Notes under the pieces: model-generated
What the model saw: only the letters and a program-made list of their open reading frames with translations
What the model was told of the DNA's origin: nothing
Databases searched by the model: none
Assembly (NCBI GenBank): GCA_031414955.1
Contig: JANOQV010000105.1
Span: 40,653-104,652, forward strand
Length of the DNA: 64,000 bases
Direction of reading: 5' to 3'
Origin: Pedosphaera sp.
Lineage (GTDB): Bacteria; Verrucomicrobiota; Verrucomicrobiia; Limisphaerales; SIBH01
Translations under genes and position numbers: made by a program
Shown: one piece after another, positions 10,221-29,962 of the stretch
Layout: each line of letters starts with the position of its first letter
Position numbering within the stretch: the first letter of the stretch is position 1

Positions 10221-11879
10221 ATGAAGAAAGTTTGGCCAATTCTATGTCTGGTGTGCGGCGCGCTGCTGTTGGGCGGCGCACTGCTCGTGCCGGTGCATTG
10301 GCGCGCGGTGGATGCCTCGGCGGTCGAACGCGCAGGCCGGGGAGGCGCCGGCGCGGCCACCCCCACTTTGATTGAGGAAGGTCTGACTTTCCTGAGCGTG
10401 GAAAAACTCGGCCCGGCTCGGATGCTCTTGCGCACCGCTCAATCGGAGGGTGTGCCGCGCGCCGAGGTGCTGGCGGCGGCGGTCGCCCAGTTTGCCAAGG
10501 ACAATCCCGCTCAGGTGGCACTGGGCGGCGAGGAACCGGTTTTGAGCAAGGTGGATCTGGCTCTGGGCGCGCTGACCGAGCCGCGTCCGATCGTGGAGTT
10601 GCTGGCCCGCCGCACGGCGCGCGAGAAGGCGCTGCAATCCTTGCAGCAATCGCGCCGGCCCGCCGTGTTGCAGATTCTCAAGAACCGTAATCTCACCCGG
10701 ACGGTTCACTTTCCTGCGGCGACGTCCTCCTCCGGTCAGGCCCTGGAAGCAGCCATCATTACCGCCGGCCTCTTGTTTCAAGGCGACTATTTCACGGCAT
10801 CGTTCCGCGAGGCGCTGGAGTGGCTGGCGGTGAGCGCGAATCGCGGCGAGAACTCCGGCGCACTCGAACTGGTCTATCTCGATCTGCTCTCCGTGGGCAA
10901 ACGCCTCGACTGGGTGTCCATGACGGAACTGGTCAAACATGTGGACAGCATCGCCACCTTGCGCGACCTCGCCGAAGCGGTGCGCTCCCACGAGGACGCC
11001 ATGCCGAACATCTTCGCGGCCGTCGCCCTGTCGGGCAACGGCCGGGGCGTGGCCAAGTATCTCGACACCTTTTCCGAGACCGGGATGAATGACGTCAACT
11101 TCGCCCTGCGCCACGGGCGCGGCGCGGTGGATTTGCTCATCAAGCAGCAGCAGCGCATTTATTCCGCCGGCCAGTTTCGCAGCCAGGTCGTCAAGTATGA
11201 TCCGTTTGGTGCGTTCTTCCACGGCCTGATGCCAGCCGCCATTGGCTCCCATGTCGGCGCCTTGTTTCTAAAGTATGCCCTGCTGCTCTTTGCCGCTTTG
11301 TTCATCGCCCGCACCATCGGGTTCATCGTTCCGCCGGTCGGCCATCGCTTCGGCGTGCGGTTCGGTGCCGACCTGGTGCTGGCCGCAGCCATCGCCTTCA
11401 TCGTCGCGCTCTCGGTCGAGCCGTTCGTCGGGCTGCCCGCCCAAATCACGGAACTTCCTTTTCGCATCCAATTCCCCGGCTTCGGGGACGCCGCCGCCAC
11501 CAATCCGCAAACCATCCATCAACCATTTATGAAACAACTCAGCCTTGTCTCACTGTCGGTGTTCTTCGTCATCCAGGCGCTGATCTACGTCTGGTGTCTC
11601 GCCAAGATCGCGCAGATCCGCCGCGAGCCAAACAGCGCCCGCGTGAAGCTGCGCCTCCTGGAGAACGAAGACCACCTCTTCGACGCCGGCCTCTACATCG
11701 GCTTCGCCGGCACGGTCATCTCGCTCATCCTCGTGGCGCTGAACATTCTCGGCAAAGGCAGCACGATGATGGCGTATTCCTCGACCTCGTTCGGCATCAT
11801 CTTCGTCTCGGTGCTGAAGATTTTTCATCTCCGCCCGCTGCGCCGGAAGCTGATCCTCGAAAGTGAAGAGCAGCCATGA
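10221..11879 (+). CDS. Polytopic membrane protein with a MotA/TolQ/ExbB-like C-terminal channel segment
   Basis: N-terminal anchor, large soluble domain and about five C-terminal TMs, including GLYIGFAGTVISL and AYSSTSFGI. Confidence 0.55.
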   Translation: MKKVWPILCLVCGALLLGGALLVPVHWRAVDASAVERAGRGGAGAATPTLIEEGLTFLSVEKLGPARMLLRTAQSEGVPRAEVLAAAVAQFAKDNPAQVALGGEEPVLSKVDLALGALTEPRPIVELLARRTAREKALQSLQQSRRPAVLQILKNRNLTRTVHFPAATSSSGQALEAAIITAGLLFQGDYFTASFREALEWLAVSANRGENSGALELVYLDLLSVGKRLDWVSMTELVKHVDSIATLRDLAEAVRSHEDAMPNIFAAVALSGNGRGVAKYLDTFSETGMNDVNFALRHGRGAVDLLIKQQQRIYSAGQFRSQVVKYDPFGAFFHGLMPAAIGSHVGALFLKYALLLFAALFIARTIGFIVPPVGHRFGVRFGADLVLAAAIAFIVALSVEPFVGLPAQITELPFRIQFPGFGDAAATNPQTIHQPFMKQLSLVSLSVFFVIQALIYVWCLAKIAQIRREPNSARVKLRLLENEDHLFDAGLYIGFAGTVISLILVALNILGKGSTMMAYSSTSFGIIFVSVLKIFHLRPLRRKLILESEEQP

Positions 11880-25639: not shown

Positions 25640-25870
25640 CAGGGCCGACGCATCTCAATTTGGTGAGATCCCACGGGGGAAAACCCAAACCCCAAACACC
25701 AGGGAAGCTCCAAACCCCAAGATCCAAGCGGTGGCGGCTCCGACTGGGCCGATGGCCTGGAGGCTCCGGGGCGCTTTGAGGTTTGGAGCTTGGGGTTTCT
25801 CTGGTGCTTGGTGCTTGGGGTTTGGGGTTTCGGAGGCTCGTGGCGCGCCGATTTAGATGCGTCGGCCCGG
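25640..25870. mobile_element. 231-bp MITE with 16-bp TIRs and a 10-bp target-site duplication
   Basis: TIRs CAGGGCCGACGCATCT / AGATGCGTCGGCCCGG (15/16). Flanked by GTTCAACCCC at 25630-25639 and 25871-25880. Interior made of inverted heptamer-like repeats. Confidence 0.8.
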
Positions 25871-25972
25871 GTTCAACCCCGGATGGAAAGGACGCTGCGC
25901 GCGACCACACCCCACTTCCAAACCATCCTCCCCGCCGCGCTCCGGTCCTTTCCAATCCTTTGGTGATTAGGC
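25871..25972 (-). other. Degenerate integron attC site
   Basis: Minus strand reads GCCTAA(TCAC)C-AAAGG-ATTGGAAAGGAC ... GTCCTTTCCAT-CCGGG-GTTGAAC: R''/L''/L'/R' layout with an extrahelical base and a GTTRRRY end. Confidence 0.65.
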
Positions 25973-26428
25973 GGCATCGTCTTCATACCAAAGTGAAAAG
26001 TCAGCAAATCGAATCTGCAACTCAATGCCGGATGAGAACAGAATACGATGCTCGAAGAGGCCAGCCGAGATGACCTCAATCTCGTCATAGCCTAAATCGC
26101 CGTAACCATGCGGCCCACCCAAGCCCTTCTTGGGGTCGGCAGTGCTGGTGAGCGAGCGAACATCTCGGTAAGTCAGCCGAAACTCACGGCTGCCGGGAGA
26201 ATACTTGCCTTTGTCTCTGCGCTCACCATCAAGTCGCAACTCAAGTGTGCCGTCCATGAAATGTAGCCGGCGCAAATGAGAATCGTGCAAACTGACATCC
26301 CAATGAAGCCGCTTGAGGTCGGCTGGGAGAGATGCCTGAACCGACTCCATGTAGCGACAGTATTTGTCGTTTACAGCCATCTGGTTCTTCACTTTGCCTT
26401 CCCACCATTTGAGCGTGAAATACTTCAT
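25967..26428 (-). CDS. Integron-cassette hypothetical protein (DUF4085-like)
   Basis: 153-aa low-GC ORF with MKYFT..W, LP..L..L...SLHD and GYDEIE...FEHRILFSSG.E..I.F. Stop codon lies inside the attC R'' box. Confidence 0.75.
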   Translation of the reverse strand: MKYFTLKWWEGKVKNQMAVNDKYCRYMESVQASLPADLKRLHWDVSLHDSHLRRLHFMDGTLELRLDGERRDKGKYSPGSREFRLTYRDVRSLTSTADPKKGLGGPHGYGDLGYDEIEVISAGLFEHRILFSSGIELQIRFADFSLWYEDDAA

Positions 26429-26445
26429 GCGCGTAACAGGGTGCC

Positions 26446-26465
26446 GCCTAACATTGTTATTAAGC
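26446..26465 (-). other. attI-like recombination site
   Basis: Minus strand GCTTAATAACAAT-GTTAGGC resembles the attI1 simple site (CCCTAAAACAAAGTTRRRY). It ends 17 nt upstream of the cassette ATG. Confidence 0.6.
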
Positions 26466-26529
26466 CGCAGTGCTTGCACGGCATCGTGCAAGGTTGATTT
26501 CCACTGGAGCCTTTGTTTTCAATGGTCCG

Positions 26530-26754
26530 ATGCAAGCCGACTTCCGCATTTCTGTAAAGGATTCTGCGCGCGGTAAAACCCTCAAGGTCCAGCTCGCGCG
26601 CGTCCCTTTCAGCCGCCACTTCCTCGTGCGGATGAACGGGGCCAAGTGGCCGGGGGATGGGCGGCCGGTCTCGTTGTCCAAGGTCTTTGCCTCCTTGCGT
26701 AAGGCGGTGGTGCGGCGGGTGGAAGGTGGGTCGGCCGAGCCTGGTGCGGACTGA
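26530..26754 (+). CDS. Small basic hypothetical protein (74 aa), divergent from the attI-like site
   Basis: MQADFRISVKDSARGKTLKVQLARVPFSRHFLVRMNG.KWP.DGRPVSLSKVFASLRKAVV; GC-ending codons. Confidence 0.55.
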   Translation: MQADFRISVKDSARGKTLKVQLARVPFSRHFLVRMNGAKWPGDGRPVSLSKVFASLRKAVVRRVEGGSAEPGAD

Positions 26755-26883
26755 GTGGGCGAAGGTGGACCTGGCCTGGACCACCGTGGGGCGGTGGCAG
26801 GAGGTTCCATTTCTGAGCCACGTTTTCCAAGGACGGGACAGGGGCCGCTTTTTTTCCTCGAAAACCCCGTCGGGAGTGGTCGC

Positions 26884-26946
26884 CAGTTGATATTTTGGCG
26901 CGGTCAGTTGATAGGGAGCGACGGACAGTTGATATTTTGGCGTCGG
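26884..26946. repeat. Three tandem 21-bp repeats
   Basis: CAGTTGATA at 26884, 26905 and 26926. Units 1 and 3 share CAGTTGATATTTTGGCG. Confidence 0.8.
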
Positions 26947-27094
26947 CACTCGGTCGGGCGGCGCGGGCGTGTCCTATTTTTGGATCAACTCTGGATCGGG
27001 AGGCGTGGCGAGTGGCGGTCGGCGCGGTCCGATGGGGTGCGGAAGCGCCAATATCGTATGGCGGTGCCTGGCGTGGGGGTGGGCGATTTCCCAT

Positions 27095-27176
27095 TTCAAA
27101 GTTCAACTGTTCAAAGTTCAGAGTTCAAAGTTTCCGGTGCAGGGCAGGGAAAAACTTTGAACTTTGAATTCGAACT
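27095..27176. repeat. Inverted heptamer repeat array
   Basis: (TTCAAAG)-like x5, a short spacer, then (ACTTTGA)-like x3. Confidence 0.7.
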
Positions 27177-27295
27177 CCGAAGCAGCGGCGGCGCAGCCGC
27201 CGGGGTAGCCCGGGCCACTTTTTCCCATTTCAGAGTTCGGATTCAGAGCAGACACCATGAATCTTCCCGCGCCGGCCTCAGTCCATTTCCGCTTC

Positions 27296-29962
27296 ATGAA
27301 ATGGAGCAATTGTTTGAGTCGCGCGGCGTCGGTGTGGGTGCTGTCGCTGTGGGTGCCGTGCTCGCGCGGGGCCGAAGTCCCGCCGGACTACCGCTTCAAG
27401 GCGGAGACGCTGGCCACCGGCATGGCGCAGCCGATGGAACTGGAGTTGGCACCCGACGGGCGCATCTTCTTCAACGAGATCAACGGCAAGCTGCGCCTCT
27501 GGAAACCGGGCGCGGGCCTGTTCGAGGCGGGGAAGATTCCGGTGTTTACGGCGCAGGAGAATGGGTTCCTCGGCTTCGCACTCGATCCGAAATTCGCGCG
27601 CAACGGTCACATCTTCCTCTACTACTCGCCGACCAATCACACCGGTCAGCGCCTGAGCCGCTTCGTGATGAAGGGCGACACGCTGGACACGGCGAGCGAG
27701 AAGACCGTGCTGCAATTTCCCGAGCAGCGGAAGGATTGCTGCCATCATGCCGGCTCGGTGGAGTTCGCGCCGGATGGAAATCTGTTCATCTCCACCGGCG
27801 ACAACACGCATCCCGGCGGTGACTCGGCGGGCTACGCGCCGATGGACGAGCGGCCCGGCCGCGACGAGTACGACGCGCAAGATGGCCCGGGTAACACGCA
27901 CGACTTGCGCGGGAAAATTCTCCGCATTCGCGTGACGGCCGACGGCGGCTACACGATTCCCACTGGCAATCTGTTTCCCAAGGACGGCTCGCAGGGTCGC
28001 CCGGAGATTTACGCGATGGGCTGCCGCAATCCGTGGCGCATGAGCGTGGATGAGAAGACGGGGATCGTCTATTGGGGCGAGGTCGGGCCGGATGCGGGCG
28101 GCGACGGCTCGCGGGGGTCGCGCGGTTACGACGAGATCAATCAGGCGAAGAAGCCGGGGTTCTTCGGCTGGCCGTTTTTCGTGGGGAGCAACTCCGCTTA
28201 CGCGCGCTACGACTTTGAAACGAAGAAGGTAGGCGAGAAGTTTGATCCGGCGCGTCCGCTCAACGAGGGGCGCAACAACACGGGCGCGAGAGTGCTGCCG
28301 CCCGCGACCCCCGCGTTCATCTACTGGCCCTACGGCGCGTCGAAGGATTTCCCCATGCTCGGTGAAGGCGGGCGCACGGCCTGCGCGGGGCCGGTTTTTC
28401 ACTTCAAATCGAGCTTCAAGAAGACCGGCGGCTTTCCCGAGCACTTCGACAATTGTCTGCTCTTTTACGATTGGCAGCGGCCGTTCATGAAGTGGGCGCG
28501 GCTGGACAAGGATTCCAACCTCAAGGGCATCGAGCCGTTCACGAGTGCGGTGTCGTTGATGAACGAGCGCACCAGAATCAACGCCGCCGAGCAGCGGGGC
28601 GAATACGTCCTTCGTCGCGTGGTCGATTCGCAGTTTGGTCCCGACGGTTGCCTCTACCTGCTCGACTACGGCGAGACGTGGGGCGCAAACGCCGACGCCA
28701 AGCTGGTGAAGATTTCTTATCAGTGGGGCAACCTTGCTCCTGTCGCCAAAGCCACCGCCACTCCGGGTGCCGGACGCGAACCGCTCATGGTTGCACTTTC
28801 CGCCGCTGGCTCGAAGGATCATGAGGGCGACGCCTTGCGCCATGAGTGGCGCTTGCACCCCGGCGGAAAACTACTGGCCAAGGAAGCGAACGCGCGGGCG
28901 ATCATCGACCAACCCGGCAATTACGTCCTCGAACTCATCGTCACCGACAGCAAGGGCGCGAGGGGCCAGACCAGTCTGCCGTTGACCGTGGGGAACACGC
29001 CGCCCCAAGTCGCCTTCAAGGAACCGCACGAGGGCGATTTCTTCACGCCGGGCAAACCACTGGGCTACGAAGTCGCCGTGCGCGACGCCGAGGACGGCCG
29101 TTCCGAGAATGAAGACGAGTTCATGGACGCGCGCGTTTACGTCAGCGCGAAGTGGAGCCGCGGCGAGGGCAAGGAACAGACTGATGAACCGGGTCTCGCG
29201 CTGATGAAGCAGAGCGATTGCTTCAACTGCCACGCCGTCGAGTCGAAGATCGTCGGCCCGCCTTTCCTCGACGTGGCGAAGAAGTATCGCGGCCAGCCAG
29301 GCGCGTTCGAGGCCAGCGTGCAGCGCGTGCGCCTCGGCAGCAGCAAGGTCTGGAGCGAGGTGCCGATGCTCCCGCATGAATCGATGAGCGCGGACCAGAT
29401 TCAACTGATGGTGCGCTGGGTTTACGGCCTGGAGCCGGGCAAGGCCGGCGCGGGGCTTATCCGCGGCCTGCGCGGCGAATTGAGGGCGCCGAAGGACGAT
29501 AAGATGCGCACCGCCATTCTCGAAGCCAGCTACACCGACGGCGGACGCGCGCCCGCTGGTTCGCTCGCTGGCTCCACGACTGTGAAGCTCCGTCATCGTC
29601 GCCTCGAAGCCGAGCGCGCCGACACCATCACCGGCGCGAAGATTCTCGGCAGCAGCGTCGGGGCGATTGATCACGGCCATTGGCTCCGCTTCGCCGCGTT
29701 GAATCTTTCAGACTCAACGAACGCCACGGTGCGGGCCTCATCCGGCAACGTGGGCGGCGTCATCGAAGTGCGTTCGGGTTCAGCGACCGGCGAACTGCTC
29801 GCCAGCTTCGAGGTAAAATCCACCGGCGGCTGGGACAAATGGGTGGAACTCACTTCTCCGCTCAAGCCGGCGACTCGCGGCGATGTGTTCGTCGTCTTCA
29901 CCAATCCCGGCAAAGGCGGCTTGATGAACCTCGACTGGATTCAGTTCAACGCGCAGCCGTAG
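27296..29962 (+). CDS. PQQ-dependent sugar dehydrogenase (GSDH-type) fused to PKD, cytochrome c and CBM6-like domains
   Basis: CCHHAG, DLRGKILRI, EIYAMGCRNPWR, FGPDG.LY, PKD segment, CFNCH heme motif and STGGWDKW. Alternative start at 27257. Confidence 0.85.
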   Translation: MKWSNCLSRAASVWVLSLWVPCSRGAEVPPDYRFKAETLATGMAQPMELELAPDGRIFFNEINGKLRLWKPGAGLFEAGKIPVFTAQENGFLGFALDPKFARNGHIFLYYSPTNHTGQRLSRFVMKGDTLDTASEKTVLQFPEQRKDCCHHAGSVEFAPDGNLFISTGDNTHPGGDSAGYAPMDERPGRDEYDAQDGPGNTHDLRGKILRIRVTADGGYTIPTGNLFPKDGSQGRPEIYAMGCRNPWRMSVDEKTGIVYWGEVGPDAGGDGSRGSRGYDEINQAKKPGFFGWPFFVGSNSAYARYDFETKKVGEKFDPARPLNEGRNNTGARVLPPATPAFIYWPYGASKDFPMLGEGGRTACAGPVFHFKSSFKKTGGFPEHFDNCLLFYDWQRPFMKWARLDKDSNLKGIEPFTSAVSLMNERTRINAAEQRGEYVLRRVVDSQFGPDGCLYLLDYGETWGANADAKLVKISYQWGNLAPVAKATATPGAGREPLMVALSAAGSKDHEGDALRHEWRLHPGGKLLAKEANARAIIDQPGNYVLELIVTDSKGARGQTSLPLTVGNTPPQVAFKEPHEGDFFTPGKPLGYEVAVRDAEDGRSENEDEFMDARVYVSAKWSRGEGKEQTDEPGLALMKQSDCFNCHAVESKIVGPPFLDVAKKYRGQPGAFEASVQRVRLGSSKVWSEVPMLPHESMSADQIQLMVRWVYGLEPGKAGAGLIRGLRGELRAPKDDKMRTAILEASYTDGGRAPAGSLAGSTTVKLRHRRLEAERADTITGAKILGSSVGAIDHGHWLRFAALNLSDSTNATVRASSGNVGGVIEVRSGSATGELLASFEVKSTGGWDKWVELTSPLKPATRGDVFVVFTNPGKGGLMNLDWIQFNAQP

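Follow-up and report, generated by a model that had tools for sequence, protein, structure and literature searches.

A small basic protein gene and an attI-type site head integrase-less cassette arrays in Limisphaerales, a probable satellite integron platform

The window is the whole stretch of DNA that we analyzed, 64,000 nucleotides from a Pedosphaera sp. contig. From its sequence alone, an original prediction had described an integron unit without an integrase: an attI-like site, one low-GC cassette with an attC-like fold, a palindrome, and a 74-aa ORF where intI should be. We found these elements in the following arrangement.

25640 to 25868, no strand: repeated palindromic element of about 230 bp with 14-bp terminal inverted repeats, outside the platform
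25871 to 25972, minus strand: atypical array-terminal attC-like site, a 102-nt fold, with R'' GCCTAAT carrying 4 extra bases and R' GTTGAAC
25967 to 26428, minus strand: low-GC cassette gene, 153 aa (ATG at 26428, stop codon ending at 25967)
26446 to 26470, minus strand: attI-type simple site with an A/T-rich left part and core G/TTAGGC, classed on core turnover and likeness to intI-linked attI
26452 to 26446, minus strand: core GTTAGGC, read from the window sequence
between 26452 and 26451, minus strand: predicted crossover point, at the G/TT of the core
26474 to 26491, no strand: palindrome TTGCACG-N4-CGTGCAA, predicted operator, platform-specific across the family's loci
26494 to 26523, plus strand: predicted promoter of the small gene, with -35-like TTGATT at 26494-26499 and a -10-like element at about 26517-26523
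26530 to 26754, plus strand: small basic platform gene, 74 aa here with a conserved core of about 65 aa, divergent from the cassette array

Indeed, the cassette ORF starts 17 nt past the core GTTAGGC, with a GC content of 0.52 versus 0.64-0.65 in the flanking genes, and its end, TGCCGCCTAA at 25976-25967, is the complement of TTAGGCGGCA at the cassette start over the predicted 10 bp. Its product shows a partial match to DUF4085 (E 1.8e-7), and a 79% identical relative of the gene lies behind a different att-like site in genome G005. Contigs of four DNA runs contained neither another cassette nor an empty site at the window core. The palindromic element at 25640-25868 sits directly after the attC, is flanked by repeated 12-mers GGGTTCAACCCC, and has further copies on host contigs C89, C229, C199, and C208. 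Behind the small gene, the spacer carries short repeats (26880-26950 and 27095-27180; CAGTTGATATTTTGGC occurs twice), and TTCAAAGTTC-type repeats from the same region recur on other host contigs.

The small ORF belongs to a conserved family. A single-sequence search yielded 43 homologs, and a profile search yielded 975 among the 8000 candidates scored; clustering at 50% identity gave 306 clusters, and the homologs listed are unnamed or "hypothetical." The protein is about 65 aa long with a pI of 11-12. With a median dN/dS of 0.17 across 23 intact copies, the ORF is a real gene under purifying selection. Its distribution is patchy: 30 of the 401 genomes of the order carry it, and the 38 genome loci come mostly from Verrucomicrobiota or Limisphaerales. 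A search of viral contigs gave one weak partial match. Longer forms of the protein turned out to be over-extended starts or chance fusions, and none contains an integrase domain. A 33-nt relic of the gene start, with no start codon or site, persists on host contig C67 (about 29711-29743). Six platforms (L118, L121, L141, L149, L167, and L174) have in common, 3' of the gene, a convergent neighbor sequence at 73-84% identity.

Structure prediction, one of the checks originally proposed, gave a model with a pLDDT of 88.8 (96-row alignment; four strands, then one helix) but no clear fold match. The protein has no family match in Pfam, NCBIfam, PHROGs, or PDB sequences, and a search of the ESM Atlas, with scores of 0.81 or lower, found no family. 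The best hit in fold searches reached Z 4.1, which does not imply a new fold. PC4/PUR-type single-strand binders have the same order of four strands and a helix, in a known fold that is a swapped dimer. Pur-alpha matched a first model of the protein (Z 3.6, rmsd 5.1-7.2, 62-66 aligned) and was absent from the top 50 structural matches of the better model. PF11680 and PF02229 have no match in the host genome. Among arm-type integrase DNA-binding domains, 3rmp_C appeared at E 1.4 and probability 0.08, and Pfam returned none.

We then considered the gene together with its site. The unit occurs in more than 100 loci of related bacteria, and the captured genes differ. Our genome set holds 39 loci (38 homologous loci and the window), and the metagenome set is the best 80 of 258. 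The family palindrome has the consensus CGTGCACG-N4-CGTGCACG. The small ORF diverges from the palindrome and a G/TT core in 35 of the 39 genome loci; among 75 readable loci of the best 80 of 258 from metagenomes, 74 have the palindrome and 64 have both palindrome and core. In 47 of 54 loci of the latter set, 76-79 nt separate the start codon from the core. Five homologs at 35-43% identity, which come from another family of the class, also diverge from att-like cores and cassette-like genes. Three of the five have attC model matches; the five differ from the window platform in their upstream motifs, and none has an IntI match within about 1.5 kb. Collecting homologs and scoring their surroundings, as had been suggested, tied the small gene to att cores and attC arrays.

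The small protein could still have no connection to DNA at this satellite attI, for example as a defense or array-stabilizing passenger, with the palindrome serving as a promoter element or host-factor site. The lack of a recognized DNA-binding fold fits such a passenger, and so does frequent decay of the gene, which is broken or partial in 15 of the 38 genome copies. However, an intact gene away from the site was not seen, barring single disrupted cases at L035 and L153; the palindrome does not recur as a motif in the host genome; and the link between gene and site holds even at 35-43% protein identity. We consider a passenger role improbable.

The platforms carry cassettes of the integron type. 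At 17 of 31 homologous loci, a reverse complement of at least 9 nt to the sequence after the core lies downstream, versus 6.6% of swapped pairs; the complement at cassette ends exceeds chance. Beyond it come typical attC sites. We built a clade attC model from 23 attC sites of the homologous loci. It gave 104 matches in 40 loci, the 23 training sequences included, of which 100 were on the cassette side; all 100 matches in the metagenome loci (best 80 of 258) also fell there. The cassettes are attC-bounded and in a single orientation, and arrays are long in places, with at least 16 attC sites within 8 kb at L034 and at least 11 at L027. Far-side matches were confined to 2 of 40 loci, and three of the four are part of a distinct array with a bare attI at its head.

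Near-identical platforms allow a direct comparison. In 18 of 34 pairs, in 8 groups, the sequence differs from the core onward, and the differing pairs mostly keep one and the same flank behind the small gene. Judged from sequence, cassettes turn over at the platform core, and the site is active. This turnover, the end complements, and the likeness to intI-linked attI (below) together point to insertion at the G/TT of an attI-type site.

Another view is that the unit began as a cassette, its ORF inverted and its attC decayed, or else as a genomic attG hotspot that gathered cassettes. The bases preceding the core presumably resemble an attC right end. In 20 of 82 copies the stop codon coincides with AAC, versus a 13% background, but this excess is modest and inflated by kinship. 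The unit also heads arrays: far-side attC matches occur in only the two loci mentioned, one of them being the separate bare-attI array. An attG site is described as unlike attI (10.1101/2022.09.11.507474), whereas the platform site scores as attI-like and, where an attG would be unconserved, is conserved across loci. We find a cassette or attG origin very hard to credit.

The neighbors of the platforms vary widely and include dnaN, tRNAs, and a Mu-like prophage; 10 of 40 loci contain tRNA genes, and there is no common target. A transposon-like unit is not supported, since the platforms have neither terminal repeats nor a common boundary past the stop codon of the small gene. At L021 (5700-8250), a platform and its cassettes lie within a Mu-like prophage region, with a portal gene on one side and protease and major head genes on the other; the prophage is a possible vehicle for this copy. 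At L033 (8200-9140), the platform abuts the 3' end of dnaN, a slot that intI holds in the host genome (C17). At L135 (22-564), the core is followed immediately, on the cassette strand, by a gene for a tyrosine recombinase with no more than 30% identity to IntI.

The original prediction had left two options, a satellite attI served in trans together with an undescribed small protein or an integron whose intI was deleted. A full-length intI beside the small gene was found in none of the 38 genome loci and none of the best 80 of 258 metagenome loci; 35 and 41 of these, respectively, have at least 1.2 kb of sequence behind the gene. IntI searches returned partial matches alone, in 3 of the 38 and 3 of the 80 (best 80 of 258). 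Two of them may be true intI pieces: at L048, 52% identity over 93 aa, 5.2 kb from the platform, and at L134, 58% over 59 aa, 2.2 kb away, both on the opposite strand. A further partial match is the fusion at L044 described below. Conversely, the small gene occurs in 0 of 57 intI loci, and the palindrome in none of the 47 whose 5' region could be read (flanks of up to 1.5 kb, with some loci counted twice).

We compared the platform sites with an attI matrix made from 27 intI-linked attI sites, which we picked by rule and two of which are doubtful. Over the proximal 18 nt, 72 of 77 platform sites score above the 95th percentile of random cores, with a mean of 5.5 against -3.4 for composition shuffles. 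In the distal part, just 5 of 77 exceed the 95th percentile. By sequence, then, platform and intI-linked attI have the core-proximal part alone in common. The window site presumably also resembles attI1 itself.

An ordinary integron that lost intI, with attI left next to an unrelated small gene, can draw on several observations. A decayed intI (a pseudo-intI on C120) exists in the host genome, and intI loss is among the CALIN origins given in PMC4889954. At L044 (7830-8150), an in-frame fusion joins an intI-type attI and the first intI codons to the 3' part of the small gene, which suggests a deletion between two tandem platforms. However, the counts for full-length intI and for the small gene and palindrome at intI loci run against loss of intI, as does the high variety of genes flanking the platforms. 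This alternative is largely refuted. The conservation of ORF and site, the turnover at the core, and the presence of intI elsewhere argue instead for a satellite attI platform, the first of the two options.

The integrase is absent from the locus as predicted, and all integron-integrase matches of the genome lie on other contigs. The one match above the TIGR02249 cutoff is on contig C17 (383 bits), in a complete integron: next to intI lie a separate attI and a single cassette, whose attC matches that of the window at 96% identity. In other genomes, too, the platform and intI arrays of one genome have common attC stretches up to 98% identical. An intI match is present in 22 of 30 carrier genomes versus 138 of 371 others (Fisher P = 1.5e-4, which overstates the association because kin are not independent); a separate count gave 26 of 34 carriers. 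Eight of the 30 carriers have no intI match, one of them a single-contig genome. Service of the platform by an IntI encoded elsewhere is likely.

More integrase-less arrays headed by a bare attI are found on host contigs C184, C120, and C195 and at L027 (about 11800-11830); the one on C120 carries the truncated intI start mentioned above. With these alongside the platforms, the host and related genomes each operate multiple satellite arrays, and the arrays are of different types. Since the bare-attI arrays lack the small gene, it is not needed for a satellite array.

The attC of the window deserves separate attention. The predicted fold of about 100 bp was recovered as 102 nt ending in GTTGAAC, but it is atypical. 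Two findings together were to count against the original prediction, a blank from an attC model even once the 4 extra bases were taken out and no integron association of small-gene homologs. The clade model, built from 23 sites, indeed misses the window attC with its 4 extra bases, which goes partly against the prediction; the homologs are integron-associated. The fold is no more stable than shuffles on the cassette strand (z 0.06; z -1.8 on the other strand). Modeled as an excised circle, the site has ends that base-pair and leave the 4 extra bases as a small bulge, and this pairing and the 96% identical copy on C17 support the site.

Eight near-full and two half copies of this attC are present in the host genome, with relatives in G011, G002, and L161. 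The family's loci are host C311, C30, C184, C17, C161, C120, C195, C8, and C154, together with L196, L198, and L161. Members stand behind different cassettes and head types, and those on C30 and C161 are cassette-less. Wherever the far side is readable, this type of attC is the last of its array, and the 3' flanks beyond it are alike. Such a site may recombine poorly and act as a terminal anchor, or fixed array terminator.

The region between gene and core has the features of a small promoter. Of 113 loci, 96 have a -10-like element at a distance of 5-8 nt from the ATG and 94 a -35-like element, by patterns fitted post hoc; in the window the -10-like element ends 6 nt ahead of the ATG. None of the 113 loci has a Shine-Dalgarno-like word ahead of the gene. 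A consensus scan of the window did not list this predicted promoter and found no consensus promoter (Pc) on the cassette strand. A Verrucomicrobia LexA motif was found neither at the platform nor before intI. The palindrome abuts the conserved -35-like element. Its position, the close -10, and the lack of a Shine-Dalgarno word suggest that the small gene is leaderless and autoregulated.

These data lead us to a satellite integron platform that is likely loaded in trans and whose small protein is predicted to bind the palindrome and tune the unit; we give this reading a probability of roughly 0.6. That the unit is an integron head without its own integrase we hold with considerably more confidence. 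An IntI from another locus would recombine a folded attC with the double-stranded core of the platform, as at any attI. The small protein would be made from a leaderless message and, as a putative dimer, bind the palindrome beside its own -35 element. When bound, it would regulate its own gene and either cassette expression or access to the core. The protein is a predicted DNA binder at the palindrome, with no family or fold match pointing to DNA binding, and a role as palindrome-binding regulator seems to us reasonably probable.

On the same satellite platform, the protein might instead be an architectural or directionality cofactor that shapes the attI x attC synapse from a palindrome about 20 bp off the core, replacing the accessory repeats of attI1. 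The nearly fixed spacing of start codon and core (76-79 nt in 47 of 54 loci) agrees with such a cofactor. The palindrome also takes the place of the distal part of intI-linked attI, and PMC8946536 proposes that attIA x attC lacks accessory proteins still to be found. However, L050 and L051 have a common frameshift in the small gene, yet they differ in their first cassettes, which argues against an essential recombination factor encoded in cis. The palindrome also abuts the predicted -35 of the gene, as an operator would. Taken with the other broken copies and the bare attI arrays that occur without the gene, this favors a palindrome-binding regulator over a required cofactor, and we judge the cofactor role rather unlikely. 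The small protein is probably a modulator and is not essential to strand exchange.

The platform works like an integron head without integrase. A complete integron (intI, attI, and Pc, including that on C17) also has a divergent head gene, an attI simple site with G/TT, and a common attC pool. Unlike it, neither the window nor the homologous platforms have a full-length intI next to attI; the divergent gene of the platform encodes a 65-aa non-recombinase, and the distal site is a palindrome. We would class the unit not as a complete integron but as a satellite attI platform that has a gene dedicated to it.

In PMC4889954 and 10.1101/2022.09.11.507474, CALINs and SALINs are, respectively, attC clusters and single attC sites without an integron integrase, with intI loss, rearrangement, and off-target insertion offered as CALIN origins. 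Like the platform, they have attC-bounded cassettes and no intI nearby, and loading by an IntI encoded at another place in the genome has been proposed for them. The window has one attC-like site, short of the two that a CALIN takes, which many homologous loci have (L034 and L027, for example). It would count as a SALIN were its attC detected; the clade covariance model is silent, and the 96% copy ends the complete integron on C17. CALINs are defined by absence, whereas the platform has a conserved head of its own, made up of gene, palindrome, and attI-type core, which recurs at many sites in chromosomes and continues to exchange cassettes.

The CALIN in Shewanella prophage M16-3 also is an integrase-less array headed by attI, with intI in the same genome; its attI, unlike the platform's, is a copy of the integron's own, and the accessible text of PMC9892861 describes no dedicated gene. 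The DR1 and DR2 sites of attI1, like the putative binding site at the palindrome, lie ahead of the simple site as additional binding positions; they favor attI x attC (PMC8946536). They are direct repeats bound by IntI1, whereas the platform has an inverted repeat that travels with its own small gene.

A literature search covering main texts, with few subscription papers, gave no description of a gene-plus-site unit. Such a conserved head is not described in the available portions of PMC4889954, 10.1101/2022.09.11.507474, 10.1101/2022.02.06.479319, PMC9892861, PMC8946536, PMC8618304, and PMC13323075; these portions do cover CALINs, SALINs, attG sites, one CALIN with a copied attI, and suspected accessory proteins.

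According to PMC4889954 and 10.1101/2022.09.11.507474, cassette clusters without an integrase are more numerous than complete integrons, and where they come from is an open question. The platform would supply one specific source for them, namely an active head of the attI type that carries its own gene. Tools that scan for intI and attC alone would miss this head. The small protein offers a specific candidate for an accessory protein of integrons; the accessible part of PMC8946536 proposes this class but identifies no member. Site, protein, and integrase come from one genome and make a short and directly testable set. More tentatively, and at somewhat less than even odds, the platform may represent a second, non-autonomous class: a landing pad that is portable and encodes a DNA-binding accessory protein, which would be the first integron-encoded cofactor besides IntI. 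One integrase could then run several independently controlled arrays per genome, and the platform would perhaps be a branch of a wider array-heading module.
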